NCBI RefSeq assembly: GCF_000011325.1
Contig: NC_003450.3
Coordinates: forward strand, 2,880,001-2,912,000
DNA: 32,000 nt
Source of the DNA: Corynebacterium glutamicum ATCC 13032
Lineage (GTDB): Bacteria; Actinomycetota; Actinomycetes; Mycobacteriales; Mycobacteriaceae
Direction: 5' to 3'
Shown here piece after piece: positions 350 through 27,251 of this stretch. Below the pieces are notes generated by a model. That model was not told the DNA's origin and made no database searches. It was given only the letters and a program-made list of their open reading frames with translations. The number at the start of each line of letters is the position of its first letter. The stretch's first letter is position 1. Both the position numbers and the translations under genes were made by a program.

Positions 350-544
350 CAACACACCAACCCAGATACCTCCACCCTCAAGTAGAAGTCGAGATTTTTC
401 ATTTCACTGCAAACATAGTTCTAGATCAGACCATTTAAAAAATTACACCCTCACCTGGAATTTTGCAGAAATAGGGCAAGAATCAAAATAGTGGGAAATC
501 CCCATGTTTCGCGAAGTCCCATTGTTGGAGTTAGGCTTATACCC

Positions 545-991: not shown

Positions 992-998
992 ATATAAC

Positions 999-10724: not shown

Positions 10725-10752
10725 ATTTTATAGCTTCAAATGCCCTAATCAG
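10725..10752 (-). promoter_or_regulatory. Candidate sigma-A promoter of groEL2
   Basis: On the minus strand: CTGATT (10747-10752), a 16-nt spacer, then TAAAAT (10725-10730), immediately upstream of CIRCE 2. The -35 overlaps the stop codon of the 60-aa ORF. Confidence 0.4.
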
Positions 10753-10931
10753 ATACGTGACCAGATAAAAACCATCACGAGCACAATAATTACGGCTGCC
10801 GCAATGCCAGTGCCGATCCACAACATCGCAGAACGATTCCGCGCCTTTCGCTTGGCCTGTCGCTGCGCCTCATATTCTTCCTCTGCGCGAACCGCATCAA
10901 GCCTCACGCCTTCGGCATGCTGAAAACTCAT
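10749..10931 (-). CDS. 60-aa tail-anchored membrane microprotein (last gene of the cluster)
   Basis: The ATG overlaps the upstream stop (ATGA, 10928-10931). The N-terminal half is a charged helix (EEEYEAQRQAKRKARNR). The C-terminal half is a single TM segment (MLWIGTGIAAAVIIVLVMVFIW). Confidence 0.7.
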   Translation of the reverse strand: MSFQHAEGVRLDAVRAEEEYEAQRQAKRKARNRSAMLWIGTGIAAAVIIVLVMVFIWSRI

Positions 10932-12139: not shown

Positions 12140-13101
12140 GTCGTTGGATCCTCTCGTCGTGCAACCGAAGTCAACGCGTTAAACATTTGGTGGACAGGTC
12201 CAGCGAGAAGACGCTGATCATGATTTTTAATAGCGTTAATCAGCACTGGATCGAAATAGGTGGTGCTGGTTCCATGTTCCACCAAAGGTTTCCGAGAACT
12301 CAAAACATGCAGGTTGTTGGAGAGTTTTAAGATCTCGGCAGGAATGTCATCAGAGATCACCACCAGCGCATCGTCTGGGGAAATCTGGTGCAAATCCGAA
12401 TTCCACCCCACTTCCCTCACCGGCGCGTACTTTTCCGAAAGCTTGCTGATCTCCTCCGGATTAGCGACACGCACTTTTGGATCCGTAGCGCTACTGGTCA
12501 TCACATGGATGGAGCGTCCCTGGCTCACTACTGATAAAACACCAGTGGCGAAAGAACACATGAGATCAAAGGTCTCGCGGCTGGTGCTTGCTTTCATCGA
12601 CGCCGTCTTATCGACCAACACGGTGACATTAGCTCGAGCAATATCAGCTGAGCCGTCCTTATCAATGGTGCGTCCCAACGCTGATCGAACTGCCGAAGCC
12701 TCAGAGTCCAAAGAACTGTCATTGCTCACATCGCCAGCCTGCATGCGAATGATGCCCTGGCTTGGGAAAACGTTAAGAATCGGGATGGAGCGTAAACCAC
12801 CGATAGGATACGTTGGAAGCTGCAGCGTAGTTTCTTGGCGCCCAGCCTCCTGAATCACCACAGTTACATACAGCTTGGTTCCCGAAGGGAATTCTCCCCG
12901 ATCGCCATCAGGAAACACCGTGACCTCGGTATTTCCTTGAGGATTACGAATCCACCACGTATTGCCACGTCGGTTGGTTTCTGTGGAAGGAACCTCTACC
13001 CGGAATCCTAAGTCCTCGCTGAGATCAAATTCCAGACGTGCAGAAAATCCCTCGCGTGGTACGTCATAGGTCTGGTTGGAATCCAGTCGAATCACGTTCA
13101 T
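12136..13101 (-). CDS. Cytoplasmic vWA-like protein (beta-rich N-terminal domain plus C-terminal MIDAS-type domain)
   Basis: VTVLVDKTASM contains D-x-T-x-S (12598-12612), followed by the vWA-like strand pattern ...IHVMTS... and ALVVISDDIP. I see no signal peptide or TM segment. ATGA overlaps occur at both ends. Confidence 0.75.
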   Translation of the reverse strand: MNVIRLDSNQTYDVPREGFSARLEFDLSEDLGFRVEVPSTETNRRGNTWWIRNPQGNTEVTVFPDGDRGEFPSGTKLYVTVVIQEAGRQETTLQLPTYPIGGLRSIPILNVFPSQGIIRMQAGDVSNDSSLDSEASAVRSALGRTIDKDGSADIARANVTVLVDKTASMKASTSRETFDLMCSFATGVLSVVSQGRSIHVMTSSATDPKVRVANPEEISKLSEKYAPVREVGWNSDLHQISPDDALVVISDDIPAEILKLSNNLHVLSSRKPLVEHGTSTTYFDPVLINAIKNHDQRLLAGPVHQMFNALTSVARREDPTT

Positions 13102-15086
13102 GACCGCATGTCCTTTCCAATATTATTCCGGCTAATTGCTCTGATGATAGCGCGCGCCATCTCAGTAAAAATCTGGTTAACATCCCTAGACCGGGACACT
13201 TTCTTATTGATGATATCTTGGTCGATATAGCCGAGATATTGCTGTACTGCTCGAGCATTGGTGAGAATCGACGGCAAATCCTCTCGGGCAATCTGCTCAC
13301 CATATTTCTCGAATCGTCTAATGTCTTCCGTTCTGCCCTCTTGAAGAGTTAACTGCACGAAACTAAGAACAGAATCGACCGTGAGAGTAGTAAAAGCCCT
13401 GTAGGTATCTTCGTCGCCGATCAAAGCGACTCCAAAATACGCCCGCAAAAGATCCCACATGAAGTGGCTTCTACCAGTTTGAACAGACGCACCCGCAATG
13501 ATTCCTGCAAAGATCTGCTGAGCTTCATCGCTTCTCGTCCAGTCTTCGATGTCTGGCAAAGACCGATCTCTGCTGAAGTTCGGAACGATATGGTCCAAGA
13601 CGATTGCCGCAGGTGCTCTGTTCCTAGCATCGCGTTCTGCGTCCACGAGTAGTTCCCTCAAGCGAGGGTGCGCATCCTCGGTGAACTTAATGTGTCGCCA
13701 GTTGTCCATCGCTGGAAAGTCTGAAAAACTACTCCGAAAAAAGGGATCCGAAGCATTAATGCTTGTCGCAAGCTCAGTTTTCAAAAGGAAATCCAAATAG
13801 GCAACAAGATCCTGTGCCGGCGAATCATGAAGCTTCTCAATGCTGTTGATCGCCTGCTCTGACATATTGATGATCCTGCGCCGACTATCCGGCAATCGCC
13901 TCAGACTTGGCCAATCTTGTGATTCTGATGCTCTCCGAGGATTGTGAACTACCTCAGATGCACGCGCCCAAATTGCATTGGGGTTTGGTGCCGGAGCGAC
14001 AGGCTCCACCTTAGGTGCTGGCTTGTCTGGCACCTTTCCAAACATATGCTGATCAGCAAGTACGCGAAGCGGGTGCGTGCCGGAAAAACGGCCATTCCGG
14101 ATAAATCGCGCTAAACCGTCTCCAAATTGAGCGAGTTCCTTTTGGCTATTATCCAGGTTCTCGTTGGCACGAATCAGCCCTGCGACAAGTTCATCAGCAT
14201 CAAAACCGTCGGAGAAGAGCCCTTCTGTCATTCGGGACCAGGATCCCTGCGGGCCGAAAGGTTGGCTCTGTGGAATCTCCGGATCGATAATCACAATCCC
14301 TGAATGCTCCGCCAACAATTCACGATCAATTCCTGGGACCACAAACAGAGAACGAGCCTCCATTGATTTATCTGGAGCTGGCAAGGTAGCAGCACGCTCA
14401 AAGGTTGAGAAGTGCAACAGACGCCGGGCTTCATTCGGAGTCAATGTAGAAGACAACGCTTGAAGCCAATATGCTGCCTCGTTAGTGCTGTTCAGAACCA
14501 AAACAGTAGCTTTATCTCCAGCTTGGAGAGCATCTTGAAGCTGGTAGAACTGCTGTCTGCGATCGCCAAACATGCTGTCGATCATCATCCACGACAAGGA
14601 CAGATCAGTGATGGGGCCAATTCTCGGCTCGCCTGCATCCAAAGGGAGCTCGGCAGCGTTGACCGCGGCTGCACGAAAAGGGGTCAGCAAATCAGGTGAA
14701 CGGTACAGGGAAATGGGATAAACAGACTCCAGTGGGCTTTCTAGATCCCCATCAAATACTGCATGGGTGAACACATTCCCTGGACGTCCAGTGGCATCTT
14801 TACCTGCAGGAACAGACTGCATGATCAACGATCGGCCTGCCAAAGGACGGTACTCAAACCTCCTCGGCAACGCATCGATATCTTCTGATGAGATGAAATC
14901 ATCAAAAGGGGTCACCGTTTCAATATGAGTGGGCGCAACCTCCGCGATAAATTGGAGGTCTTCTTTAGTGGCCTGAGCAGACCAAGTTCCCACCTTCCAC
15001 CCACCCCTACCTGCAGTTCCTCTAAAGGACGCGTAGGTGACATGAGTCCATCTCAAGGCCACGGGCAACTCACCTGCTTCCACCAA
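13098..15086 (-). CDS. 662-aa hypothetical protein, possible GTPase-associated adaptor
   Basis: The long ORF has native codon style. The start is ambiguous: TTG 15086 or GTG 15083 overlap the upstream stop, and GTG 15062 lies 8 nt after it. The N-terminus LRWTHVTYASFRGTAGRGGWKVGTWS resembles the h-x-Y-T-S...G-x-G-G-[FW] signature I associate with GAP1-N type domains of predicted GTPase-centred systems. I recognised no enzymatic motif. Confidence 0.8.
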   Translation of the reverse strand: MVEAGELPVALRWTHVTYASFRGTAGRGGWKVGTWSAQATKEDLQFIAEVAPTHIETVTPFDDFISSEDIDALPRRFEYRPLAGRSLIMQSVPAGKDATGRPGNVFTHAVFDGDLESPLESVYPISLYRSPDLLTPFRAAAVNAAELPLDAGEPRIGPITDLSLSWMMIDSMFGDRRQQFYQLQDALQAGDKATVLVLNSTNEAAYWLQALSSTLTPNEARRLLHFSTFERAATLPAPDKSMEARSLFVVPGIDRELLAEHSGIVIIDPEIPQSQPFGPQGSWSRMTEGLFSDGFDADELVAGLIRANENLDNSQKELAQFGDGLARFIRNGRFSGTHPLRVLADQHMFGKVPDKPAPKVEPVAPAPNPNAIWARASEVVHNPRRASESQDWPSLRRLPDSRRRIINMSEQAINSIEKLHDSPAQDLVAYLDFLLKTELATSINASDPFFRSSFSDFPAMDNWRHIKFTEDAHPRLRELLVDAERDARNRAPAAIVLDHIVPNFSRDRSLPDIEDWTRSDEAQQIFAGIIAGASVQTGRSHFMWDLLRAYFGVALIGDEDTYRAFTTLTVDSVLSFVQLTLQEGRTEDIRRFEKYGEQIAREDLPSILTNARAVQQYLGYIDQDIINKKVSRSRDVNQIFTEMARAIIRAISRNNIGKDMRS

Positions 15087-17526
15087 TCCACGTTCCCAGA
15101 TTCAGCAAGGAGGGAGCGGGATCGATTAGAGCTTTCACATGAACGTCATCGGACTCTTCTTGGTGGATGAATAGGCGAAGATAGCTAGTTGGTGGAAGGC
15201 TAGCAATCTTAGGATCGATCTCCCAGTATTCAACTTCCGGTTCTTGCTCAGATCGTAAAGATGAGGAACTAATGCCAGCTAGAAGATCAGCATACTGCTG
15301 CCCTCCCCCATCATTGATGATCTTTCGAGTCATCACTTCTTGACCATCTTCTGGTTCAAGCGGGAGACGGGACGGGTGAATCCTCAAAGAGAACTGGTTG
15401 AACTGATTGTTTGGTCGCTCGCTGTAAATAGAAAGGAACAAACGGTTATTCATCAAATGCAGTTTGTAACTGAATTTGTCTAGACCTCGGTACTTGAGGA
15501 TCTCAGGCTGTCCCCAAATCTGGCGTCCTTCATAAACTCGGGAGGCAAACAGCGCAACATCGCCGGCACCAGGCAGTTTCACCCGCATGCCACCTTCCTC
15601 CTCGTAGGCTTCCCTATGGATGGAGACAAGACTAGAACCTGGGGCATCGGCAGTTGGTCCTACTGAATGACCTGAACCGGGCTCGCCAAAAACAGCAGTG
15701 ACTTCGTGTGCTTCTTCAGGCCAACCAAAAGTGAGCAATTGGTTATTCACCCGCTCGTACAGCTTCGGACGGCTAATCTCTCCCACCCGAACTCGTGAAT
15801 AGGTTTGTCCAACTTGAGCTTGGTTGCCCACAACATTGACTGGGGTGAGGAAGATCGAATACCAATCTTCAGGCCACACCACATTGCAGGAGGTCTTGGT
15901 GTCCTCCAGGTCATTGGCCCAATCTCTTCGCGCCAGGCCAAAGCTTTCCAGTTGGTCTGTTTCAATCGCGTTGAACTGCAGGTCGCTTTCTGGTGCTTCC
16001 TGAGTTCGGTAAATCCAGACTTCACCAGAGTGAGGAGCATCCCACGTCACGTCAAAACTCGTGCTGAATCCGTCGAAACGCTCTTCGATCGAAATTGGCA
16101 CCTCGACGACCTCAGCTGGGACGTCGATGACGAACTCCTCTGACGGCGCCGAGCCGACCAGCTTTCCGTGGATTTCCGCAAAACGGCGCGCGACAAACTT
16201 GTACTCCCGGCCGCGGTGCTGCGGATGGAAACGGAATCCCTGGAAGTTGTTTTTATCAGCGGCGATCTCATTTCGAGACGCCGTGACCAGGCGTTCATTG
16301 CTCGGAGCTGCGTAGACAGCAACTCGGTGGGTGTGTTCAGCAGGAGCCCACTGCCCCTTCACCTCAGAACCTGCCACCGACAACTCAATGTTGGAAACTG
16401 GGTTGATAAACACTGATTCCCCCACCAATTGCGGTTGGGAATTCACTGCCGAGGACTCCGTAACACCCTCGTACATCCACACCTGATACATGCGATAAGC
16501 AGTGGTCAAAGGCTCCTGATCCACCCAATGGGTGCCCACAGTGCTCACTCGGTGCTCCGCTAAATCAGGATCCTGCTCAAACGCCATCTCATCACTAACA
16601 ATGCGGAAAACCCGAGATGCATTGATATAAGACTCCGGCGCATCCCACTCCAGATCCAACCCACCCGTGAGGTTTGCTGTAATCCGGAGGAAACCACCGT
16701 GAGCCTGCTTGACCTCTGCAAAGCCATCAAGTCGTGCGAACTCATAGTCCTGCCAATTGCGGATATCACGATCAATTGATTGAGCTTCAGCACTTGCCGA
16801 ACGATGTGATCCGGTGTTTTGGCGTCGTCGACGTGGTGCAGGGGTTGGATCAGGTTCAGGGGTTTCAGGGATTTCAGCAACGCTTGGTTCAGCTTGGTGC
16901 GCTGGCTTGCGAACCAGCTCTGGTGCAGGTTCAGCCATAGGCTCAGGTTCAGCCACAGGCTCAGGAGCCGGCTCTGGTTCCGGCGTAAATTCCGGAGTAA
17001 ATTCCTGCTCAGGCACTAGCTCAGGCTCTGGATCCAGCACTGGTTCTGGCGCTACTACCTGCTCAAATACCTGCTCAGGCACCTGTGCTGGCCCTGGAAC
17101 AGCATGCACAGGCTCCGATTCCAGTTCCGGTTCATACTCAGGCTCATCAATCACTTCCGCGTAGTGATAATCAGCTGGCTCATCGTCGTAGAACTCTGCG
17201 TCAACGGGTGTGTCTTCGAGCGCGTCCACGGAAGCATCTTCAGGTTCAAAGTGCTTATCAAAATCAAGGTCAGGGGTGAACATCGCTGCGTCGGTGCCCT
17301 GCTCAATGACGTGAAGGGTGCCTACTTGGACGTATCCCAGGACTCGTCGAAGGGCTGTCGCCCACACGAGAAGAGCTGGGTAGTCGCCGCCAGGTTTGAG
17401 CTGGTCAGGGTCCTTAGCGGTGGCGAGTAGTTCCTCGTCGGTGGGGAGCTGATCTTCGTTGAATTTTATGCGGGCAATGTCGCGCCAGGTTTTAAACGCA
17501 CTGAGAATTTGGTATTCGCTAGCCAT
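15070..17526 (-). CDS. 818-aa protein: small N-terminal domain, Pro/Glu-rich acidic linker, four FN3/Ig-like repeats, C-terminal domain
   Basis: The ATG shares one nt with the upstream TAA (TAATG). Residues about 85-231 are PE-rich and disordered. A periodic W-[DAP]-[APE]-[PE] motif occurs at W294, W393, W495 and W602 (spacing about 100 aa), each followed by a hydrophobic strand. Confidence 0.85.
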   Translation of the reverse strand: MASEYQILSAFKTWRDIARIKFNEDQLPTDEELLATAKDPDQLKPGGDYPALLVWATALRRVLGYVQVGTLHVIEQGTDAAMFTPDLDFDKHFEPEDASVDALEDTPVDAEFYDDEPADYHYAEVIDEPEYEPELESEPVHAVPGPAQVPEQVFEQVVAPEPVLDPEPELVPEQEFTPEFTPEPEPAPEPVAEPEPMAEPAPELVRKPAHQAEPSVAEIPETPEPDPTPAPRRRRQNTGSHRSASAEAQSIDRDIRNWQDYEFARLDGFAEVKQAHGGFLRITANLTGGLDLEWDAPESYINASRVFRIVSDEMAFEQDPDLAEHRVSTVGTHWVDQEPLTTAYRMYQVWMYEGVTESSAVNSQPQLVGESVFINPVSNIELSVAGSEVKGQWAPAEHTHRVAVYAAPSNERLVTASRNEIAADKNNFQGFRFHPQHRGREYKFVARRFAEIHGKLVGSAPSEEFVIDVPAEVVEVPISIEERFDGFSTSFDVTWDAPHSGEVWIYRTQEAPESDLQFNAIETDQLESFGLARRDWANDLEDTKTSCNVVWPEDWYSIFLTPVNVVGNQAQVGQTYSRVRVGEISRPKLYERVNNQLLTFGWPEEAHEVTAVFGEPGSGHSVGPTADAPGSSLVSIHREAYEEEGGMRVKLPGAGDVALFASRVYEGRQIWGQPEILKYRGLDKFSYKLHLMNNRLFLSIYSERPNNQFNQFSLRIHPSRLPLEPEDGQEVMTRKIINDGGGQQYADLLAGISSSSLRSEQEPEVEYWEIDPKIASLPPTSYLRLFIHQEESDDVHVKALIDPAPSLLNLGTWIGGSR
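16834..17274 (-). repeat. Low-complexity Pro/Glu-rich coding tract with an 18-nt tandem duplication
   Basis: It encodes ...EPEYEPELESEP...TPEPEPAPEPVAEPEPMAEPAPE.... GGTTCAGCCATAGGCTCA (16928-16945) and GGTTCAGCCACAGGCTCA (16946-16963) are tandem copies with 17/18 identity. Confidence 0.85.
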
Positions 17527-20327
17527 TAAAACTCTCCCGTACCTGGTAGTTCTGGCCGCTTGTGAGATTGGTTTCCGCGGTCAAGGAACGGCGATTCAGC
17601 GGGATTCTCTGAGCGGAAGTCTTCATTGGTGGGCATTCTGTCGAACAAGGTTGGATCAAAGGTTGTTTGTTGAGGTCGGACAAATGAGATGTCAGCGTCT
17701 TCGGCGGGTTCACTGATTTGGAGCAGCACTTCGCTGATTCCGATGGCATCTGATTCGTTTTCTTGTGGCTGGTACATGCACAGGGAAGGATCCAGGCTGA
17801 GGATGCCTTTCACGCGACCTTTTTCGCTGGCGATTTCGCCGTTGAAGAAACCAACAGTTACCAGGTCTTTTAGTGGTTGTTGGTATGGTGCGTCGACCTT
17901 TTCGCCACCGCGATAGATCTGGAGTGAATTCAAAATACCGGATCGAACTTCATGGCTTTCCTGCGAGAGTTGCAGGGTGATGTCATCCCAGATCTGCACG
18001 CTGCGATCTGTTTGGCGGAATTTTTCGCCGGTCACGAAATCCGACAATCTGGCTAGATCACCGTAGGAGCCTTCGCCGGTGCTGCCAAAAAGGGTGCGTT
18101 CATTGACGCTGTTTCCAGACTCCGCTGCCAAGGCATCTGATGCGGAGTTCAGCGCAGCCATTACCCGTTCGCTCACCCATCCCTGCTGGTATAGGTCTCG
18201 GCGGAATTGTCTGGTCAGTTTCTCCACGGCATCTGAATCAGGAATAGCCTCGGCGAAAATGACTGAATCTGGCATCGAGTTAATGGGGATCGGTGATTCC
18301 CTGCGGGCTCGTTCAATGTTGCCGAAAGGTCGTTCCAGCAGTGCACCCATAATCTTGGATACAGACAGGAACTGTTGGTAGCCCACTTGAATGCGGAGCT
18401 GTGCCTGCTGCGAAATCTTCAGGTTCTTCTTCGCAGCATCAAGCTCGGTGACTAGGTCTTTACGCAGGTGAGTAAATCGAATTTCATCGCGAGTCTCAAA
18501 AATGCATTGCGCAATCCAACAAATCAGCCAGATACCAAACCAAATTCCGAAGAATTTCCACTTGAAAGCGGTGTCTGTCGCAGCGAAACTTACAGCCCAG
18601 CGACTGATGTCCATTGGAGTTTCAGCCAAGTAGTATTCTGCAGCCCACCACACGCCAAAGATGGCCGCGGACCAGAACGATACCCAACCCAACCAGCGGA
18701 AAACTCGGGATCCTAAACCTGTTCCATCGAAGGATTTTCCTTGTTGGGACAGGCGATTAATTTCTTGATTCCACCGCTTTTCCTGAGATTCCATCTCCCG
18801 TTGGAGATTTTGCAGCCCAGATCCCACGAAGTAGGCAAAACTCTTCGAGTTTTGGTCTTGCCAGCGCTTGAATTCGCCAATAACCTGGCCCATTCCGCGC
18901 TGCCCGCGGTCGCTTTCTTTTGCTAATCGACGCTCAAACTCAGCGACGCCTTCCAGGTCGTACGGGGGCACTTCTTCGACATCGACAGCCACTTTGACCT
19001 CAACGGGCAGCCCATCGCCATAGTTAGTTTCTGGGCCTGGGATAACGTCAGCGCTTCGTCGTGCAACAACCACTCGTTGGGATTGTCCAGTGTGAACGAC
19101 CGACGGGGTTCTCATCCCGTTTTCACCGTAAGCAATTGCGCGAGGCTGAGCATCAAGAAGGCTCATTGCGGTGTTGGCATATGCTTGCCACAGTTCTTGA
19201 AGATCAGCGGCATATCTGATTTTGAGGTCCTCAGACTGCACTGCCCTCTGGTTTTTGTTTCCACTCAAAGCAGACGCAGTGACACGATCACCCACGCGAG
19301 TACCCGAACCGGAATTGCCGTAGACACTTGCTTGAAGTGCATCTTCTGCGAAGGTCTTTGATTCAGCAGAAAACTCAGCAAAGAAGCGGTTCGGTGTAGT
19401 CACCATCTTCTTGATCCAGACGCTGAAGAACTGCTTAACTACCGCACTTCCAGAAATCGTCTTCGTTTTCTCAACATGAGCTGCAGCTTCTTCACCGATC
19501 AGTGGAGTTCTGAACTCATCAAGAATTTCCTGAGCTGCTTTTTGGGCGAAGGTATCCGGATTTTCTGCGTACTGCGCAGTGCGCTCCTTACCTGGAATGT
19601 CCAAGCGAGGAAGCGGGTTTTCCGCGGTGCTGAGAATCTTCTCCTTGAGACGAGCCTGAACTGCTTGGCCGTCAATTCGCCTGTAAAAAGACCTCACCAA
19701 ACGAAAGCTGGAACCTTTCGCAGGTACGAGCTGTTCGATTGGTGTGGATGTGCTGCCTTCCCACAGTCCGTACAAGCTGGCGATATTAGCCACGCAGTGC
19801 AGGGTGAAACGGTGATCGCTGAAACCATGACGGTAGGTCACTGTTGCGGTGCCTGGGCTGTGGCTATCTTCAGGTGCCAGCATCAGGTTCACATAACCAC
19901 GAAGAATTGGAAGTTCCTCATCAAGTGTGGCAGCCACCGCACCGATCATCACGTTGGATCGGTGAATTTGGTGGTGTGAACAGACACTGTCGATGATCCC
20001 AACCAATGGGTTGAGTTCTTCTGCATGAAGCATGCCTTCGCTGCCATCAATGACGTTGATGACACCGATGTGAAGCTTGGTGGTTCGTGACCGGGACACC
20101 AACTCATTGAAAGGTCGTCGCTGAAGCTCCGGAAGACCGTCTTGGTTGGTTGCCAAGTGGGTGACTTCAGATGAAGACTCGTGGAAACTATCGGCATCAA
20201 TCCACACCAGGTTGCGGACTAGGCCGGTTTCTGCGAAGTCTTCTAGGGTCTGTCGGATCCCTTCAGCGGTCAGACCCCTCCCCAGAAACACCGTCAAAAT
20301 GGTGTCCTGCGAATAGGCGGCGGACAT
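17526..20327 (-). CDS. 933-aa membrane protein with a central Trp-rich TM hairpin and an LPGTGEF C-terminus
   Basis: The ATG abuts the upstream TAA (TAAATG). Two hydrophobic helices sit at about aa 543-566 and 589-610 (18498-18701) and carry 9 Trp. Large domains on both sides lack a signal peptide. The C-terminal tail ELPGTGEF lies at 17529-17552. Confidence 0.85.
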   Translation of the reverse strand: MSAAYSQDTILTVFLGRGLTAEGIRQTLEDFAETGLVRNLVWIDADSFHESSSEVTHLATNQDGLPELQRRPFNELVSRSRTTKLHIGVINVIDGSEGMLHAEELNPLVGIIDSVCSHHQIHRSNVMIGAVAATLDEELPILRGYVNLMLAPEDSHSPGTATVTYRHGFSDHRFTLHCVANIASLYGLWEGSTSTPIEQLVPAKGSSFRLVRSFYRRIDGQAVQARLKEKILSTAENPLPRLDIPGKERTAQYAENPDTFAQKAAQEILDEFRTPLIGEEAAAHVEKTKTISGSAVVKQFFSVWIKKMVTTPNRFFAEFSAESKTFAEDALQASVYGNSGSGTRVGDRVTASALSGNKNQRAVQSEDLKIRYAADLQELWQAYANTAMSLLDAQPRAIAYGENGMRTPSVVHTGQSQRVVVARRSADVIPGPETNYGDGLPVEVKVAVDVEEVPPYDLEGVAEFERRLAKESDRGQRGMGQVIGEFKRWQDQNSKSFAYFVGSGLQNLQREMESQEKRWNQEINRLSQQGKSFDGTGLGSRVFRWLGWVSFWSAAIFGVWWAAEYYLAETPMDISRWAVSFAATDTAFKWKFFGIWFGIWLICWIAQCIFETRDEIRFTHLRKDLVTELDAAKKNLKISQQAQLRIQVGYQQFLSVSKIMGALLERPFGNIERARRESPIPINSMPDSVIFAEAIPDSDAVEKLTRQFRRDLYQQGWVSERVMAALNSASDALAAESGNSVNERTLFGSTGEGSYGDLARLSDFVTGEKFRQTDRSVQIWDDITLQLSQESHEVRSGILNSLQIYRGGEKVDAPYQQPLKDLVTVGFFNGEIASEKGRVKGILSLDPSLCMYQPQENESDAIGISEVLLQISEPAEDADISFVRPQQTTFDPTLFDRMPTNEDFRSENPAESPFLDRGNQSHKRPELPGTGEF

Positions 20328-23300
20328 TTAGAACTCACCCTCACCAGGTAGAGAAGGTCCTGAAGAAACGTCGCGGCGAGCTACGTTCATGTCAAAGACC
20401 TGTGCTGATGGTGGACCTGCAGCCAAGCACTTTTCCAGGATGTCGATGATTTCTTGGGTGCCATCAAAAACATCGGCTGCAAGGTCAGCAAACACTGGAA
20501 TCTGTGCTGCTAGTTCACGATCCTTGACGTCGCCAAATGGACGATCAGCGGTGGTGAACAGACGGCCTTGGCGAAGCTTGTCGCTTGGGACGTAATTTTG
20601 CGAGATCTCGTTCTGGCGCTGCAGGAAGTTCTTCGCAGCCTCAAAACGTGCAGCTGGGGTGACACCAGCTTCGGTTCCTGGGATCTGGAGGACGTTTCCA
20701 GCCATGCGGTTGCCGTCGAAAAGCCAATCGTGCAGCAGCTTCTCACCGCGGGTGGTGCGTCCTGGCAAGGATGGGCTCGCAGCATCATCCCACAGTTGGC
20801 GGAGCTGGATGTAAGGCTCGACGGATTCAAAGACAGGACGCTCGCCTGCCCGTGCCCATGCCAATGATGCTGATTCCAGAAGGTTTGGCAGCCAATCGAG
20901 GCTTCCACGGAAACGGGACACTGGGGTGAGCATTGGGGTGGAGAAGTTGATCCACGAATCAGACTTCTCATCGTAGATCTGCACTGGAGTGGTATCCGCA
21001 GTGTCTAGAGTTGCGGGGAAGAATACTCGTCCGACCAGACGACCGATGTACCAACCCTTGACCATGGCGTTGCGCTCTAGGTCTGTCATTGGAAGTGCAG
21101 CAGTCAAAGGACGAGTACGGCGGCCATGCCAGAATTCCGTGCGATCGCCGGTGATCTGACGCCACTGCTTCTCGATTGGAGGCAGCAGGGAGTCAAACAC
21201 GATCGGCGCGTAGTTGGGGTAAGAGCCGAAGATATCAATGGAACGCTCTTCACCTTGGGAGACCAAAGCCTTGCCCAGTGGCTTGGAAATATCTGCTGGT
21301 CGGTGGTTCGGGTAATCACGAACTGCCTGTTCCAGGCTGGATCCAAGCTCATCGCCGGCAAATGGGATGCGAGAGAAGTTGAAGTTGTAGCGGACTTCAT
21401 CGCCGTAAAGCGCACGAACCAGTTGAGGGTTGATCTGAGCCAATGGAAGCGCGTAGGTCATTGCCTCACTGAACTTGCTCAGCACCTGCTGACGGCGCGC
21501 GCGACGCTCGTGGTCTGCCAAGCCCGGCGCGGTGATGAATTCACGCAGTGAGCTGGCGATGAACTGCTGGAAGGAGAAACCAGGGCGGCGGATGTACTGG
21601 CGGGAGCGCTCGAGTACTTCGCCGGTATCAATCTTCAGCTCAAAGCGTGCTTGCTTAGGGTCGCGGAGGCTTCCCGAACCGGACGGATCCCTGGTCAGGT
21701 CACGGGCAACCCATACGTCGATGAGGCGGATGAGATCGCGTGGTGCTTTTTCAGAGCCGGACTTGGATTCCCACACACCGCTGACTACTCGAGTTGAGGC
21801 CTCTTGCAGGGCGCTCGAGTAATCGTTTTGTTCGTTGATGTCATCGGTGGACGAGCGGACGTGTGCTTGGAACTGCTCCGGGAAGGAGGCGACATCGGTC
21901 AGGAAGACTTCGTTGGCTGCCTGACTGAAACGTGACGGGACGGTAGTTTGAGATTCATCTGGCCACAGTGCTGGAACGTTGGTTTTCAGCTGGGAGATTC
22001 CCAGGTTCACATCGTTGGTGAGCTGGTAGTCCTTTTCTAGGGAGTGGTGCTCACGTTGGATGGTGCGCTGAAGTGGGTAGATGAAATTTTTGAGGAAATC
22101 GTCCAGAACCGAAGCCATGTGGTCCGCAATGTATTGCACTGCGCGGGTGTGTAGTTGACCAGTGGATCGTGACACGATTTCCTGGATGTAGCTGTCAGAA
22201 TCGTCGATCCTGCCCTTGCTGTTGTCCAGTTCACTGCGGCTGACATCGTCTAGTTGAACAGCCTCAGGTGCACGGTTGTTTGCCAGATCAGAAAGCTGTC
22301 CGATGAGTTGGTTTTGGATTGTGGCGCTGAGAGATTCGATCACGCTGACGCCGTAAGGAACGCCCAGTTTTGCGATCTCATCACGAAGCAACTCGACTAC
22401 TCGGCGCTGCAACACATCAGCACTGGCCCAGTCGGCGACACCCATGTAGAGCTCATGGCGGGAGTCATTATCAATCATCTGGCTGGATGATTGGAAAGCA
22501 CGCTGGACATCCCCGAGCCATTCACTTCCGCGCTGGCCATTAGCTGCAGGAATTTGGCTCTTGATGATTGCTTTCATACGCTGGGTCCAGTTTTCAATCA
22601 TCTGGTTGAAACTATGGAAAATCCAGTCCCCTGCCGGCGCGTTGACGGGCAAAACGTCGCTGAGGTTGCCCATCAGCGATGGACGGTTGTTCTCGAGTCG
22701 CTTTTGAAGCTGCTGGTCAGAGGCCGCATCATTGCTTGGATCAAAGTGTCCCTTGAGCAGACGATCCACGGCAGAGCGTGCCAGTCGCTGGGCGGCGTAT
22801 TCTGCGTAGCGATCACGACCCATGGATAGTTGTGAGTAGCCGTAGCTGCCCCACGGAATGTTCTTAGCTTCCTGTGCACCCCATGCGTACTTGCTCTGAT
22901 CGGCACTTCCGCCACCACGGTTGCCGAGGGTGAATTGCTCGAAGTTGTCCATGGACACTTCATCAGCCATCAGAGCTGCAAGGCCACGGCCGAGTGCGCG
23001 GTAGACGGTATCTGGCTTGCCATCACCAAGCAGAGCGCCGTTTTCACCGGAGCGAATACCCACTGGGAAGATACGTCCAACTGGGATGGAGTCATCGCCA
23101 ACAGAAACACCCAAAGCGTTAAACAGTCGGGCATCTTCTTCGGAAGCTGCACCCATCTGTGCTGCTGCGAGCTCGGCAAACATGGCCAGCGCGTTTGGGT
23201 TAGTTCCGGCAACCTGGTCTGGGGAAAGCTGGGAGAAGATATCCGGGGTCACCATAAACAGTGAGCTCAGACCCACTGCGTTGCCTTCAAGACCGGTGAG

Positions 23301-23921
23301 CAGGCGGCAGATATCTAGAGCCATCGAAGCACCGGCGCCACCAGCCATGGAGGAGACAACGAAGATAATTGGCTGCTCTTTAGAGGTTTCACCACTGGAA
23401 ACAGACGTGCCATACAGTGCAGAACGAAGGTCAGCGAGCTCACGTTCAGTCTCACCGCTGAACAACACATCCCATGATTTACGTAATTCAGCCTGAATTT
23501 CCTGAAGTCGGCTCAGGATCAACATACGGCCAATGGAGCGGTACTGGCCCGCACCTTTACTAATTGGGGTGGTTTCAGAATCAGGGTTTCGAAGCGCCCA
23601 TGAAGAAACGCCACCCAACGCGCCCCTGGAGGAGAGCTGGTTGGACACCGCAGTATCAACGGTGGCATAGCGATCCGAGGAACCACAGGAAATATAACGT
23701 CCACCGGCTTCTGGAACATTCGGAAGGTTCGGGCCGGGGCTTTCTGGGGAGGTCGGAACATCCACCGACACGAACTGCCACGCACCAGGAAGTTTTGCTT
23801 CCTTTGGATTTGGGTAACGCTCGGGAAGACTATCCGCCAGGGTGGTCTTGAGCTGGTCCATCATATAAGCGAGCGTTTTGGCACCTGAACCACCACAGCC
23901 GACAACGAGAACTTTCTTCAT
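20328..23921 (-). CDS. 1197-aa tubulin/FtsZ-superfamily GTPase-like protein with a roughly 900-aa helical extension
   Basis: KKVLVVGCGGSGAKT (23874-23900) compares with FtsZ IKVIGVGGGGGNA. SKGAGQYRSIGR (aa 121-132) compares with the FtsZ T3 loop GLGAGANPEVGR. IIFVVSSMAGGAGASMALD (AGGAGAS at 23325-23345) compares with the tubulin signature [SAG]-G-G-T-G-[SA]-G. AAGGA precedes the ATG. The C-terminal tail is SLPGEGEF. Confidence 0.85.
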   Translation of the reverse strand: MKKVLVVGCGGSGAKTLAYMMDQLKTTLADSLPERYPNPKEAKLPGAWQFVSVDVPTSPESPGPNLPNVPEAGGRYISCGSSDRYATVDTAVSNQLSSRGALGGVSSWALRNPDSETTPISKGAGQYRSIGRMLILSRLQEIQAELRKSWDVLFSGETERELADLRSALYGTSVSSGETSKEQPIIFVVSSMAGGAGASMALDICRLLTGLEGNAVGLSSLFMVTPDIFSQLSPDQVAGTNPNALAMFAELAAAQMGAASEEDARLFNALGVSVGDDSIPVGRIFPVGIRSGENGALLGDGKPDTVYRALGRGLAALMADEVSMDNFEQFTLGNRGGGSADQSKYAWGAQEAKNIPWGSYGYSQLSMGRDRYAEYAAQRLARSAVDRLLKGHFDPSNDAASDQQLQKRLENNRPSLMGNLSDVLPVNAPAGDWIFHSFNQMIENWTQRMKAIIKSQIPAANGQRGSEWLGDVQRAFQSSSQMIDNDSRHELYMGVADWASADVLQRRVVELLRDEIAKLGVPYGVSVIESLSATIQNQLIGQLSDLANNRAPEAVQLDDVSRSELDNSKGRIDDSDSYIQEIVSRSTGQLHTRAVQYIADHMASVLDDFLKNFIYPLQRTIQREHHSLEKDYQLTNDVNLGISQLKTNVPALWPDESQTTVPSRFSQAANEVFLTDVASFPEQFQAHVRSSTDDINEQNDYSSALQEASTRVVSGVWESKSGSEKAPRDLIRLIDVWVARDLTRDPSGSGSLRDPKQARFELKIDTGEVLERSRQYIRRPGFSFQQFIASSLREFITAPGLADHERRARRQQVLSKFSEAMTYALPLAQINPQLVRALYGDEVRYNFNFSRIPFAGDELGSSLEQAVRDYPNHRPADISKPLGKALVSQGEERSIDIFGSYPNYAPIVFDSLLPPIEKQWRQITGDRTEFWHGRRTRPLTAALPMTDLERNAMVKGWYIGRLVGRVFFPATLDTADTTPVQIYDEKSDSWINFSTPMLTPVSRFRGSLDWLPNLLESASLAWARAGERPVFESVEPYIQLRQLWDDAASPSLPGRTTRGEKLLHDWLFDGNRMAGNVLQIPGTEAGVTPAARFEAAKNFLQRQNEISQNYVPSDKLRQGRLFTTADRPFGDVKDRELAAQIPVFADLAADVFDGTQEIIDILEKCLAAGPPSAQVFDMNVARRDVSSGPSLPGEGEF

Positions 23922-23961: not shown

Positions 23962-26643
23962 TTATCGCGCGCCGAAGCCGCCGCTGGAACCAAATCCACC
24001 ATTTGTGTCGTTGGATCCGCTACCGGAGCCAAAGCCTCCACCATTGCTGGAGCCGAAACCACCACCGGAACCAGTGCCAAAACTAGGAGCTTGCTTTTCG
24101 ACGTGGCCCTGCGCGGCTGGGGCGCGCGGTGGAACCTTTGCGGGCTGGGAGGTCGCGGCGTCGTCAAGCAATTTTTGTAGTTCGCGTGCCCTATCAGGGG
24201 CTTTGCTGGTGATACCTGCGATCATGCGGTCGATTTGGCCCTGCTCGAGCGGCAGGTTTGTCAGGGCGATGAGTTCCATCTTGGAAGGGTCAGCGCCGCT
24301 TGCAGTGAGGAACCAACTGCCTTGGACCGCCAGCGGGAGTTTAGCTTGTGTGCCCTTTTGTTTGCCGTCGAAGCTGATCGACGGGTCGGTCTGCACGATC
24401 ACTGCAGGAGACGCAATCGGGTTCAGCTGGAAGCGCTGGACTTTAAGTTTGTGGCCTTCCACATTGAAGGTGTCTCCATGAACAACGACCTGCTTGGTGG
24501 CGGTGGTTTGCGATGCGAGATCAGGCATAGTGCTGCCCGCATAGCGCAGAGCTTCACCGGAGAATTCCACTGGAATGCGCACGCCACTCATCGCAGAGGA
24601 CGGAACCTTTGCGGAGAGGAAACGCACAATATACAAAATGAGCAGCGGAATCAGGAGGGAAAGCACAAGGGCCAAAATGAATGCCAATGCGAAAGTGGAG
24701 GCGTTAATGGGAACGCTCAACGTGCCTTCTGTCGGCAGATCCACGCTGGTTTCATTGGCGCCCTCAGCGTTGGAGATCTGGAGTGGAATCGAGCCGTTGA
24801 CCAGTCCGTCACGAAGATCGCTCACGGTTAGTTCAACAGGAATCGTGCCCTGCTCATCCAGTCCGAGCACCAAAGCATTATCTGGGCTGTCGAAAGTACT
24901 TGATGCTGCAATGCCGTCCACGCCGTCTGGAAGCACTCCGCTGAGCTGGGTTCCCGGTGCAATCCATACCTTGCCGGGGCCGGTGATGGGGATGTCTACG
25001 GTAACAACGTCCTCATCCGCTGTGAAGCGAACCGACGCTGGCAGCTGAGGCATATCGCGCTGAGTGATGGTGATGCGCGTGGTGTTGAGAATTGGGCTCA
25101 ACGTGGTGCCGGGGAGATCATCGACGCCTGCGGTGGTGATCGTGGTACGCGCTTCCACCGTGCCGATGGCTGGGAGCTGCGAAATCGTATCCAGCGGGAA
25201 GCTTAATTCGCCGCCAGAAATATCAATTCCTTGAGCCAAAGGGGCGAACTCGCCGGTATCTGCGCGGGTGAAACCAAGATCGACCAGCGCGGACCCCTCA
25301 AGGATGCGTGGCTGACCATCACGGCCCACCAGCTGCATATTCAGCTGCTGATCATCGCGAAGGTTAAGTGCACCTGACGTCGAATCACCGCCACTGAACA
25401 CAAGCTGGAGGTCAGGCTGGATCTCCACTGAGTTGAATACGCGTCCATCAACCGCTGCAGGATCAATTCCTTGGAACTGAATCTGCCAGACACCCTTCCA
25501 ATCCCCACCTTGCTGCAGGTTGAGGGAACCATCAGCCATTTTTACTGGGCTGCTTTCGGCTTCCCAACTCACGTCAGTGCTGTTGGCGACGCTGCTTCCA
25601 GAATCTTTGAGCTCAACCGTTTCGCCGTTGGGTGCGGTGAGCACCAAGTGGGCGTTCGGGCCGAGATCATCCTTGGCGATCGCGGTGAAACGCACAGAGT
25701 TCACCGAGTTGTCCAGGGTGAAGCTGAAAGGATCACCAGCTCGGGTTTCACCAATTGTTTCACCACCAATCGCAAGGGCTTCACGGAATGCTGCGAAAAG
25801 TCCGCCCACGTTATCTGCTGGGAAGAATGCACCGTTAGCTGGTTCGACACCACATGTTCCGCCACCTGCGGTGGTTCCGCGCAGCAGGCTGAAATCAGAT
25901 GGGTTGGTAGGTGCCGATAAACCGATGCCGATGTGGGTGATGCCAGCACTGCGCAGTCGATCGGTGACGCCACCCGGCGCGCACAGTGCTGCTTCTGCAA
26001 CATCGGCGCCTTCTTGAGCGGTCAGTGCGCCGTCGGTGAAGGTCACCAGCATGCGGCAGGCGTCCTCAGAGCCGGACCTAGTGAAGTCCTGGTAAGCGCC
26101 CTCAATCGCGGAGGCGTAGTTGGTGTACTGCTCCTGGGTGCGGTCAGCGAAGCGGGAGATTTCATCTTGTACTCCGCCAACGGTGGAGGCATCTAGTTGC
26201 GTCCATGCTCCGTAATTGTCTGGATCAGTGGCACCAGATTTGTACGTCTGGCCGAAACCAGCAACACGGATGCGGGTGTTCAGATCACCATCGCTTTGCT
26301 TGGCTAGAAGCTCATCCACAAAGCTCTGTGCTGCAGGAACACGGTGGTGCTGTGCGTCCGCGCCTGGTTCATTGGCGTTGACCACGCCGTCACGAGCTTC
26401 ATGGATCAAGGATTCTGTCTCATCGATCATGATGATGACATCAAGAGTGCCTTTATCAGCGATGCAGGCACCCAGGTTGCTCAAAGAACCTGACGCTCCG
26501 GCCTCAACTGCAGGTGGTTCCTGCGCCAACGCACTAGGCGCGAGGCTTACCAAAGCGCCAAAAAATAGCGCTGTGGCTGCAGCAACAACGCCTCTGGCAA
26601 AACGGGGTACATTCACGGTTTTAGAGTTCAACGTGTTCACCAT
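23962..26643 (-). CDS. 893-aa bitopic membrane protein: signal peptide, extracytoplasmic vWA (MIDAS) domain, beta-rich region, TM segment, cytoplasmic domain, Gly/Ser/Phe tail
   Basis: I prefer ATG 26643 (MVNTLNSKTVNVPRFARGVVAAATALFFGALVSLAPSALA|QE, a signal-peptide-like N-terminus). The MIDAS motif is DVIIMIDETES (DETES at 26410-26424), later followed by MLVTFTDGAL. The TM segment FALAFILALVLSLLIPLLILYIVRFL lies at 24616-24693. The tail is GGGFGSSNGGGFGSGSGSNDTNGGFGSSGGFGAR. Confidence 0.85.
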   Translation of the reverse strand: MVNTLNSKTVNVPRFARGVVAAATALFFGALVSLAPSALAQEPPAVEAGASGSLSNLGACIADKGTLDVIIMIDETESLIHEARDGVVNANEPGADAQHHRVPAAQSFVDELLAKQSDGDLNTRIRVAGFGQTYKSGATDPDNYGAWTQLDASTVGGVQDEISRFADRTQEQYTNYASAIEGAYQDFTRSGSEDACRMLVTFTDGALTAQEGADVAEAALCAPGGVTDRLRSAGITHIGIGLSAPTNPSDFSLLRGTTAGGGTCGVEPANGAFFPADNVGGLFAAFREALAIGGETIGETRAGDPFSFTLDNSVNSVRFTAIAKDDLGPNAHLVLTAPNGETVELKDSGSSVANSTDVSWEAESSPVKMADGSLNLQQGGDWKGVWQIQFQGIDPAAVDGRVFNSVEIQPDLQLVFSGGDSTSGALNLRDDQQLNMQLVGRDGQPRILEGSALVDLGFTRADTGEFAPLAQGIDISGGELSFPLDTISQLPAIGTVEARTTITTAGVDDLPGTTLSPILNTTRITITQRDMPQLPASVRFTADEDVVTVDIPITGPGKVWIAPGTQLSGVLPDGVDGIAASSTFDSPDNALVLGLDEQGTIPVELTVSDLRDGLVNGSIPLQISNAEGANETSVDLPTEGTLSVPINASTFALAFILALVLSLLIPLLILYIVRFLSAKVPSSAMSGVRIPVEFSGEALRYAGSTMPDLASQTTATKQVVVHGDTFNVEGHKLKVQRFQLNPIASPAVIVQTDPSISFDGKQKGTQAKLPLAVQGSWFLTASGADPSKMELIALTNLPLEQGQIDRMIAGITSKAPDRARELQKLLDDAATSQPAKVPPRAPAAQGHVEKQAPSFGTGSGGGFGSSNGGGFGSGSGSNDTNGGFGSSGGFGAR
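23965..24090 (-). repeat. Gly/Ser/Phe low-complexity tail (GGFGS-type repeats) of the vWA membrane protein
   Basis: The translated C-terminal 42 aa are almost entirely G, S, F and N. Confidence 0.85.
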
Positions 26644-27251
26644 GACTGCTTTCCTACCCACAGGGCAATATCCAAGGCCGACCACACAACAGCAAACACC
26701 AATAGGACGGCTGTCGCAGTAAAGAGCGCTTTCTTCCACGGCACTTCTGTATAAAAGCCTGTCGACTTTCGCTCATTTACTGCTGACATGTACTTGCCGA
26801 TGGACAGCACGCTCAAAATTCCTGCCAACACCCACGCAATTCCAGCAACGATGAGAAAAAGATTATCGGTGGCCACTGGCGCACCGAAGGTAATCCACGC
26901 ATTGAGTCCCAGGCTGATCAGCCCTAAAACTAGGCCCGGAAGAATCCATTCAGTGGGTGCCGATTGAAGGCGCCCACCAGCTCTTTTTCGCCCCGATGAG
27001 CGCCCCGGCGCTGGGCTTTCTGCAACCTTTGGCGTCGAAAAGCCCGATGGGTTTGACGTTGCTCCGGCCGGGGTAAACCCGCCAGTTGAACCGCCGAACG
27101 AGCCATTCGATGAACCCCCAGAGAAACCGCCTGAAGAGCCACCAAAACCACTGTTTTGGGAGCCTCCACCGAAACCTGATTGCCCGCCTGAAAATCCGCC
27201 AGAGGAAGAACCAAACGTTCCCCCGGGTGGTTGGGTAAATCCTTGTGACAT
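26637..27251 (-). CDS. 204-aa membrane protein: Gly/Ser/Phe-rich N-terminal arm plus 3 TM helices (first gene of the cluster)
   Basis: GGAG lies 8 nt upstream of ATG 27251. The N-terminal roughly 75 aa read GGTFGSSSGGFSGGQSGFGGGSQNSGFGGSSGGFSGGSSNGSFGGSTGGF. A basic patch RSSGRKRAGGR follows, then three hydrophobic helices. The stop overlaps the next start (ATGGTGA). Confidence 0.8.
   Translation of the reverse strand: MSQGFTQPPGGTFGSSSGGFSGGQSGFGGGSQNSGFGGSSGGFSGGSSNGSFGGSTGGFTPAGATSNPSGFSTPKVAESPAPGRSSGRKRAGGRLQSAPTEWILPGLVLGLISLGLNAWITFGAPVATDNLFLIVAGIAWVLAGILSVLSIGKYMSAVNERKSTGFYTEVPWKKALFTATAVLLVFAVVWSALDIALWVGKQSW
27026..27251 (-). repeat. Gly/Ser/Phe low-complexity coding tract (GGF/SGF repeats)
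   Basis: The translation of the first roughly 75 codons of the 204-aa ORF has the same composition as the tail of the downstream vWA protein. Confidence 0.85.

Follow-up and report, generated by a model that had tools for sequence, protein, structure and literature searches.

We analyzed a 32,000-nucleotide stretch of the Corynebacterium glutamicum ATCC 13032 chromosome (here called the window; all positions are counted from its first letter) and focused on cg3018, a gene that encodes a protein of 1197 amino acids (aa). The cg3018 protein is very probably a member of the FtsZ-like-1 (FtsZl1) family, or Pfam Tubulin_2, and the tubulin-like part of a GTPase operon, with a GTP-binding head, a helical stalk, a C-terminal domain (C-domain), and a disordered tail. 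The FtsZ-like family that Makarova and Koonin described in 2010 (PMC2875224) is the same as Tubulin_2, as confirmed in PMC9871819. Both the family and the annotation were already known, and our finding is a rediscovery. The product matches C. glutamicum records by exact sequence (cgp_3018; UniProt Q8NM57, "Tubulin-like protein"); in NCBI it goes by "tubulin-like doman-containing protein." The family was published in 2010 and the operon in 2020, so the novelty implied by an earlier note on this DNA, made from the sequence letters, did not hold up. What is added here is a domain map, an orphan C-domain fold, a C-terminal peptide shared with a neighboring protein, and a conserved cytoplasmic vWA partner. 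The open reading frame (ORF) reported in the earlier note is real and lies on the minus strand, which that note had left unstated; an AGGA Shine-Dalgarno-like motif is found 9 nucleotides (nt) 5' of its ATG.

The assignment is carried by the family match and by the nucleotide-binding loops of the head. Pfam Tubulin_2 (PF13809) matched aa 5 to 386 over the entire profile (positions 1 to 356 of 356; E = 8.8e-66; 223 bits, with a cut-off of 27), and all 38 aligned orthologues matched it as well. These 38 full-length sequences (34 to 87% identity) made up the ortholog alignment, and conservation was followed further in 116 more divergent relatives (26 to 69% identity). In a search of 5.8 billion proteins, 644 relatives of the cg3018 protein were recovered. 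The best 120 of these were full-length (∼1180 to 1230 aa; 35 to 87% identity) and came from Corynebacterium, Mycobacterium/Mycolicibacterium, Rhodococcus, Gordonia, Williamsia, Propionibacteriaceae, and Microlunatus.

Counterparts of the T1, T3, and T4 loops of FtsZ and tubulin were present in the order given in the earlier note, and their key residues were invariant in the 38 orthologues (T1, G8, G10, G11, S12, and G13; T3, G123, A124, G125, Q126, R128, G131, and R132; T4, S191, M192, G194, G195, G197, A198, S199, M200, and D203). Among the 116 wider relatives, the T1 residues were 85 to 95% conserved, and at least 95% conservation was found for G123, A124, G125, R128, G131, and R132 in T3 and for S191, G194, G195, G197, and D203 in T4. 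The GAG-x5-GR spacing of the T3 loop is that of FtsZ GAGANPEVGR. The T4 motif AGGAGAS agrees with the tubulin signature [SAG]GGTG[SA]G at five of seven positions, the number claimed previously; it has Ala in place of the signature Thr and Ser in place of the last Gly, and this Ser is kept in 85 to 95% of the 116 relatives. Further nucleotide-site elements of the head, T2 (D54) and T5/H5-like (N243 and E250), were conserved. These three residues, together with R308, N334, G368, R369, Y375, and R379, were at least 95% conserved in the wider set. The general Tubulin/FtsZ profile PF00091 gave a weak, sub-threshold match at the T4 region in 14 of the 38 orthologues (E = 0.013 to 0.28), with aa 186 to 208 falling on profile positions 112 to 134. 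The earlier note had held that the tubulin assignment would fall if the Gly-rich loops were not conserved in orthologues; they are conserved in both sets, and this objection therefore fails.

From the 38-sequence alignment, AlphaFold2 produced a confident model of the full-length protein, with a mean predicted local distance difference test (pLDDT) score of 86.5 and a predicted template modeling (pTM) score of 0.78. The secondary structure of the model puts T1, T3, and T4 at the sites that a tubulin fold demands (Table 1). When the model was compared by Foldseek with 350,542 PDB chains, the top 50 matches were all FtsZ, alpha-, beta-, or gamma-tubulin, TubZ, or CetZ. The FtsZ proteins among them were from S. 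aureus, M. jannaschii, and A. aeolicus, and the best structural matches were 5h5h, 2vap, and 2r6r, with S. aureus FtsZ 5h5h at the top (E = 4.6e-3; probability, 1.00; target-normalized template modeling [TM] score, 0.45). The TubZ of a C. botulinum phage, 4xcq, was in the top 10 (root mean square deviation [rmsd], 5.9 A). The predicted model thus gives the head a tubulin/FtsZ fold. The divergent tubulin-superfamily head that the earlier note had placed at the N terminus is borne out, although it covers ∼390 aa rather than ∼250.

It is exceedingly improbable that the N terminus is instead a generic Rossmann-type domain, such as that of a dehydrogenase, with loops that resemble those of tubulin by chance. 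Gly-rich loops of the GxGxxG kind do occur in many Rossmann folds, and direct sequence searches of the PDB returned no FtsZ or tubulin. However, none of the 50 top structural matches was a dehydrogenase, the Tubulin_2 match is strong, and every loop is conserved, follows the expected sequence of loops, and has, in the case of T3, FtsZ-like spacing. A non-tubulin fold was the other ground on which the earlier note would have given up its assignment; since neither a dehydrogenase nor any other Rossmann protein was found among the top 50, this objection fails too, and within the limits of prediction a generic Rossmann domain is ruled out.

Some canonical elements were not recognized in the head. 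We did not find a conserved T7 acidic motif (NxDxxD/E); aa 324 to 331 (MDNFEQFT), which align to FtsZ NVDFAD, were variable in the orthologues, and a noncanonical substitute for T7 is possible. Neither FtsZ_C nor Tubulin_C had a Pfam match in the protein, even at E of ≤10. The absence of a clear T7 loop and of the FtsZ C-terminal domain had been pointed out in the earlier note, and it agrees with the description of FtsZl1 in PMC2875224, according to which T6-H7/T7 is not identifiable. A strand and helix at aa 361 to 390 (SMGRDRYAEYAAQR) aligned weakly to FtsZ S7-H9 (SGEDRAEEAAEM; hhalign, not significant) and may possibly be a remnant of the activation domain.

Several results count against our assignment or against what might be built on it. 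Head-to-tail polymerization of the tubulin type is uncertain, given that T7 and most of the C-terminal activation domain are absent. The Foldseek values were modest, with no E value at or below 1e-3 and TM scores of 0.35 to 0.45, because of family-specific inserts and 800 unrelated residues. No sequence link to FtsZ or tubulin in the PDB was obtained by phmmer (aa 1 to 400) or by hmmsearch (38-sequence profile), both of which gave only spurious helical or repeat matches. Alignment of the family profile to FtsZ by hhalign was also insignificant (E = 0.03 to 0.07). Against three FtsZ sequences it covered 216 columns (E = 0.033; probability, 1.6%) and serves only as a consistency check; its register nevertheless agrees with the earlier loop assignment at T1, T3, T4, S5/T5, and H7. 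Of the three sequences, from E. coli, B. subtilis, and M. tuberculosis, only that of E. coli was verified. A listing of FtsZ homologues contained only near-identical enterobacterial FtsZ, which confirmed the E. coli sequence and offered no diversity for a profile. Against E. coli FtsZ alone, the family profile aligned over 25 columns on H7 (E = 0.071, not significant). Moreover, no bench study of any Tubulin_2/FtsZl1 family member was found in the literature searched, and searches by the locus tags cg3013 to cg3018 and NCgl2622 to NCgl2627 returned only collisions with unrelated identifiers.

The missing elements bear on whether cg3018 could be a canonical, self-sufficient cytomotive paralogue of tubulin or FtsZ that acts in division or DNA segregation, with hydrolysis by its own T7 and a head-to-tail polymer. 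We regard this as very unlikely. Like FtsZ, the cg3018 protein has the GTPase-domain fold, the elements T1, T3, T4, and S5/T5 in order, and a globular part followed by a disordered linker and a short conserved C-terminal peptide. It differs from FtsZ in lacking the conserved T7 aspartates, in an activation domain reduced to an S7-H9-like stretch (weak alignment), in inserts between S3 and T3 and between H3 and S4, in the extra 800 aa behind the head, and in its operon context. TubZ and PhuZ, which are likewise divergent tubulin-superfamily GTPases with C-terminal extensions, offer a second comparison, and phage TubZ 4xcq was among the better superpositions. In TubZ and PhuZ the extensions serve assembly; these proteins have a functional T7, polymerize by themselves, and are encoded beside TubR/tubC-type partition genes on mobile elements. 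In contrast, cg3018 is chromosomal, and Pfam recognized no partition protein among the products of its neighbors. An origin of the locus from a plasmid was rejected (no plasmid match), and the operon holds vWA, FNIII, GAP1, and GTPase genes rather than partition or division genes. Further, a role of FtsZl1 in division was judged unlikely in PMC2875224 because conventional FtsZ is present in the same genomes.

Behind the head lies the large noncanonical extension that the earlier note had described. It is ∼800 aa long, not ∼900, and DSSP on the AlphaFold model showed that it is not helical throughout; the stalk is mostly helix (77%). The stalk was the least conserved region of the protein. As a separate observation, 46 of the 75 columns that varied within the C. 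glutamicum group fell in the stalk (aa 401 to 600; 22120-22720, minus strand), and the head and C-domain were near-invariant there. The C-domain contained many invariant Trp, Arg, Pro, and Gly residues in the ortholog alignments and was modeled with pLDDT scores of 80 to 86 (80 when modeled alone). No structural relative of it was found in the PDB (best Foldseek E = 0.88; probability, 0.03) or among the BFVD viral models (best E = 0.47). A phmmer search with aa 636 to 1197 against 1.84 billion representatives gave 687 homologues, and among the 112 listed matches longer than 1000 aa, the C-domain began at about residue 600 to 695 in all but one; the architecture is therefore fixed. In full-length relatives it consists of an FtsZ-like head, a long helical region, and a C-terminal globular domain. 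In terms of the predicted model, the C-domain has an orphan fold that is possibly new here.

This architecture is close to that described for FtsZl1 in PMC2875224. The cg3018 protein has the FtsZ-like head with conserved T1 and T4, the helical region, and the C-terminal globular domain, and its operon includes a vWA protein and a divergent P-loop GTPase; it is a member of the family, with no difference in kind. There are differences of detail. In that paper the middle region is an extended coiled coil and the C-domain mostly alpha-helical, whereas our model has a bundle of 20- to 45-residue helices and a mixed alpha/beta C-domain. The OmpA and protein kinase partners of FtsZl1 in other lineages are missing from the cg3018 locus. 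The same study reported vertical inheritance of FtsZl1 in actinobacteria and suggested either a novel mechanism of filament formation or no filaments.

The tail of the cg3018 protein closely resembles that of the protein encoded immediately downstream, cg3017; in C. glutamicum, both have acidic-hydrophobic ends (cg3018, ...SLPGEGEF, 20331-20354; cg3017, ...ELPGTGEF, 17529-17552; both minus strand). Of 78 genomic orthologues of cg3018, 94% had a hydrophobic last residue (Phe in 60), 91% had at least one acidic residue in the last eight positions, and 90% had P-x(1-3)-G in the last nine. The cg3017 tails were similar (hydrophobic last residue, 88%; Phe, 60 of 76; acidic residue, 92%). The C termini of the vWA, FNIII, and GAP1 proteins were hydrophobic in 0 to 11%, and the GTPase was an exception, with a hydrophobic last residue in 70% of its orthologues, of which only 28% carried an acidic one among the final eight positions. 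The two tails also change together, as in the pairs (cg3018 versus cg3017) LPGEGEF and LPGTGEF, MPGEDLF and MPGEDLF, MPGEDDI and FPSEGDI, MPGLD and LPGLD, FLDGADDL and FLDSDLTKDL, and MPGAGGVF and MPSGGAVF. Paired tails had a BLOSUM62 score of 12.7, compared with 3.5 ± 1.7 for shuffled pairs; none of 5000 shuffles reached 12.7, and the same shuffle test gave no signal of tail co-variation in control proteins. Thus, a C-terminal peptide that appears to be common to cg3018 and cg3017 and to co-vary between them is possibly new here. It is important to note two points that weaken this picture. Most of the co-variation comes from related Corynebacterium lineages, and because they are related, the shuffle test overstates independence. 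The mycobacterial tails are also only loosely alike (VIPEGGTF in cg3018 and PPGGDLVF in cg3017). We also considered whether cg3017 might be a degenerate paralogue of the cg3018 protein, and we rejected this (hhalign E = 0.19).

Judged from the layout of the genes, cg3018 belongs to an operon on the chromosome that comprises eight to nine translationally coupled genes (Table 1). The run lies on one strand, its starts and stops abut or overlap, and its order is cg3020, cg3019, cg3018, cg3017, cg3016, cg3015, cg3014, cg3013, and an unnamed ORF of 60 aa. A promoter-like site lies upstream of cg3020 at 27298-27270 (minus strand). We followed the locus in 80 species-representative genomes of Corynebacterium, Mycobacterium, Rhodococcus, Gordonia, Propionibacteriaceae, and Arthrobacter, and the order vWA-tubulin-cg3017-FNIII-GAP1-GTPase was kept in 71 to 79 of these 80 loci; cg3020 was detected in Corynebacterium loci only (21 of 80). 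The members differ in their rate of divergence. Identity to the nearest species was 41 to 51% for GAP1, cg3017, cg3014, and the FNIII protein versus 66 to 71% for the tubulin-like protein and the GTPase, and the fast divergence of the former fits evolution as sensors or adaptors.

Table 1. Features of the cg3018 protein and its putative operon. Positions refer to the window; residue numbers refer to the encoded protein.
Feature	Position	Strand	Basis or description
cg3018 gene, tubulin-like protein	20328..23921	-	ATG start, 1197 codons, stop included; ORF list and translation
Tubulin/FtsZ-like GTP-binding head, aa 1-392	22746..23921	-	Pfam; AlphaFold secondary structure S1-H1-S2...S6-H7-like; Foldseek
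T1-like loop VLVVGCGGSGAKT, aa 4-16	23874..23912	-	Between strand 4-9 and helix 10-31
T3-like loop SKGAGQYRSIGR, aa 121-132	23526..23561	-	Just ahead of helix 128-153
T4-like signature VVSSMAGGAGASMALD, aa 188-203	23313..23360	-	Between strand 185-191 and helix 196-208
Helical stalk/bundle, aa 393-635 (∼240 aa)	22017..22745	-	DSSP on model: 77% helix, helices of 20-45 residues
C-domain, aa 636-1172 (∼530 aa)	20406..22016	-	DSSP on model: 44% helix, 8% strand, 48% coil; family-specific, mixed alpha/beta
Disordered tail, aa 1173-1197	20331..20405	-	pLDDT <50; ends ...SLPGEGEF-COOH
cg3020, 204-aa membrane protein	26637..27251	-	First gene of putative operon; Gly-rich N terminus, three hydrophobic segments
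cg3019, 893-aa membrane-bound vWA protein	23962..26643	-	NCBI name "vWA domain-containing protein"; upstream of tubulin gene in 79/80 loci
cg3017, 933-aa membrane protein	17526..20327	-	Abuts cg3018 stop codon; in 79/80 loci
cg3016, 818-aa FNIII-repeat protein	15070..17526	-	N-terminal domain, acidic Pro/Glu-rich linker; in 75/80 loci
cg3015, GAP1 (GTPase-associated protein 1)	13098..15083	-	PF20013 GAP1-N2 E = 3.9e-24, PF20014 GAP1-M E = 2.4e-12; in 73/80 loci
cg3014, 321-aa cytoplasmic protein with vWA-like C-terminal half	12136..13101	-	MIDAS DxSxSM as VDKTASM, aa 163-169
cg3013, DO-GTPase2, TRAFAC-class P-loop GTPase	10928..12139	-	PF19993 E = 2.8e-11; P-loop GDRSSGKS, DVAGE, SKFD; in 71/80 loci
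Unnamed 60-aa ORF	10749..10931	-	4-nt overlap with the stop codon of cg3013; annotated as a gene in three C. glutamicum assemblies

The composition of the operon recalls a published theme. Kaur et al. 2020 (PMC7159879) described GAP1-N2 DO-GTPase systems with an actinobacterial tubulin theme, which, in the sections of that paper considered here, is a computational prediction. According to those sections, the theme places the tubulin gene beside FNIII-repeat proteins and a membrane-bound vWA protein; one of two FNIII-repeat proteins is fused to HRDC, and the second one, bound to the membrane, has vWA and a beta-rich domain. So far as these sections go, the cg3018 locus shares with the theme the DO-GTPase2, GAP1-N2/GAP1-M, a single tubulin gene fused to an uncharacterized C-terminal domain, an FNIII-repeat protein (cg3016, from precomputed Pfam matches), and, in cg3019, a vWA protein that is membrane-bound and has a beta-rich region. 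It differs in that the cg3013 GTPase is without CxxC zinc-ribbon motifs. The same sections do not mention three features of the locus, namely, cg3017, whose C-terminal peptide is shared with cg3018, the small vWA protein of the cytoplasm, and the 60-aa peptide.

That small cytoplasmic vWA protein, the unannotated cg3014, matched Pfam VWA_2 only weakly (E = 0.15). Nevertheless, 46 of 53 loci had an ORF of at least 250 aa between the GAP1 and GTPase genes, and D164, S/T166, S168, M169, and D251 were conserved in it. A conserved cytoplasmic vWA protein with an apparently intact metal ion-dependent adhesion site (MIDAS) in this operon is possibly new here. Counterparts of cg3014 outside Corynebacterium were missed by tblastn and were found by position.

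The composition and surroundings of the operon inform two readings of its role. In the first, which follows Kaur et al. 2020, it would be a nucleoside triphosphate (NTP)-regulated conflict system, anti-invader or abortive-infection-like, with the tubulin-like protein as an effector or superstructure module released by the DO-GTPase/GAP1 pair; we consider this quite possible, though short of probable. The gene content is that of the GAP1-N2 tubulin theme as given in the sections considered, although the proposal in them is computational only. The putative sensor and adaptor components evolve fast, and the system is patchy across actinobacterial genera. However, Pfam recognized no toxic effector domain in any of the nine products, and a search of the nine proteins with the PADLOC-DB 2.0 defense models gave no match at E of ≤0.01. 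The surroundings also speak against such a system. The operon is flanked by an mrp antiporter and an M20 peptidase on one side and by GroEL2 and PPK2 on the other, these flanks are syntenic across the C. glutamicum clade, and mobile-element genes are absent. GC content is flat across the locus, no signs of a defense island were seen, and there are no tRNA genes near the operon. Taken together, the stability of the locus and the lack of a defense island and of an effector domain point slightly away from a classical defense island.

In the second reading, the operon would serve housekeeping remodeling of the membrane or envelope rather than conflict or defense, with FtsZl1 as a cytoskeleton-like membrane scaffold (Makarova and Koonin, PMC2875224). 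This too may be the case, though we are inclined to doubt it. The stable chromosomal site between the M20 peptidase and GroEL2, GC content like that of the surroundings, the lack of tRNA and mobile-element genes nearby, and the empty PADLOC search are all in keeping with it, as is vertical inheritance of the family in actinobacteria (PMC2875224). Four operon products have predicted membrane segments, and one of them has an extracytoplasmic vWA. The FNIII repeats are near-invariant among C. glutamicum strains, but between species the FNIII protein, GAP1, cg3017, and cg3014 diverge faster than the tubulin-like protein and the GTPase, which does not favor a housekeeping role. Neither do two points reported in the sections of PMC7159879 considered here, namely, that these systems and VMAP ternary conflict systems exclude each other in actinobacteria and that there are thematic links to effector-bearing GAP1 systems. 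No remodeling phenotype is known.

How the cg3018 system might work can be put forward as a chain of steps, and as a whole this chain is tentative and rather unlikely to hold throughout. The head would most likely bind GTP because T1 to T5 are intact. With T7 and the greater part of the activation domain absent, turnover of the nucleotide, and self-assembly if it occurs, would be noncanonical or would depend on a partner, as the earlier note had suggested. The stalk and the C-domain are candidates for oligomerization or partner binding. The DO-GTPase/GAP1 pair could be the switch, and the extracytoplasmic vWA/beta-rich protein and the FNIII protein could be envelope sensors or anchors. The C-terminal peptide may act like that of FtsZ and dock the cg3018 protein and cg3017 on one receptor. 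MIDAS sites bind acidic ligand residues, as is known from vWA domains and integrins, and for this reason the MIDAS site of the cytoplasmic vWA protein cg3014 would be the favored receptor candidate.

Joined together, these last steps would have the co-evolving acidic C-terminal peptide, with its hydrophobic end, recruit the cg3018 protein and cg3017 to the MIDAS of cg3014 and so nucleate or anchor a T7-less tubulin assembly under the control of DO-GTPase/GAP1. We think this improbable; docking of the tails on a vWA domain is something that we purely infer, which counts against the proposal. If it were true, an integrin-like ligand-MIDAS contact would exist inside a bacterial cell, a tubulin-superfamily polymer would be coupled to the membrane in a new way, and C. 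glutamicum would be a tractable model for the FtsZl1 branch. Within the tubulin/FtsZ superfamily, FtsZl1/Tubulin_2 is probably the branch that has diverged most, and it raises the question of what role a tubulin GTPase domain plays without T7 and most of the activation domain and with 800 extra residues. Since cg3018 sits in C. glutamicum, a safe and genetically tractable model, it is an attractive experimental target.

The remaining operon products have features of their own. The layout of cg3019 comprises an N-terminal signal/transmembrane segment, an extracytoplasmic vWA domain in which the MIDAS residues (D74, S78, T174, and D204) are invariant, a beta-rich region, a transmembrane segment at about aa 640 to 680 of the 893-aa form, and a Gly-rich cytoplasmic tail. 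Most annotations give this protein 893 aa, with a start at 26643 that begins 1 nt past the stop codon of the upstream gene; a longer mechanical ORF of 925 aa with a GTG start (23962-26739, minus strand) is retained in an older ATCC 13032 record. Low-complexity, Gly-rich sequence of the GGFG/GGFS type is found both in the cytoplasmic C terminus of cg3019 (23962-24100) and in the N terminus of cg3020 (27100-27251; both minus strand). In other genera, the tail of the cg3019-type vWA protein is DPF/NPF-rich instead of Gly-rich.

The FNIII repeats of cg3016 were identified from precomputed Pfam matches (Fn3_SaeA_2nd to 6th, PF25832 to PF25836); a local copy of Pfam gave no match, and HRDC was not detected by Pfam in this protein. 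Profile searches of cg3016 and cg3019 against the PDB gave nonsignificant matches only, to the TRAP vWA domain (E = 0.58) and to IGF1R residues 552 to 625 (E of ∼0.5), which we take to be an FnIII region. The name "SaeA" in Pfam suggests that an orthologue has been named somewhere; in the literature searched, SaeA was not found together with tubulin or SecA2 in one paper, and a link of SaeA to SecA2/Msmeg_1684 proved wrong, as that protein is SatS. The acidic linker of cg3016 (aa ∼150 to 240; ∼16807-17079, minus strand) carries indels among C. glutamicum strains, with protein lengths of 785 to 818 aa. Hypervariability of the FNIII domains within C. glutamicum was considered and rejected, since the repeats were near-invariant and the acidic linker alone varied.

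At the downstream end of the operon, the product of the 60-aa ORF is charged in its N-terminal half and has a hydrophobic helix at the C terminus (LWIGTGIAAAVIIVLVMVFIW). Because of this arrangement, it is a possible tail-anchored membrane peptide, which might serve as a small anchor for the operon. Elsewhere in the window (491-4886, plus strand), a gene for a MarR-family regulator precedes one for a protein of 1295 aa whose domains are AMP-binding, PP-binding (carrier), and hexapeptide-repeat transferase; this protein resembles a single nonribosomal peptide synthetase (NRPS) module and is unrelated to cg3018.

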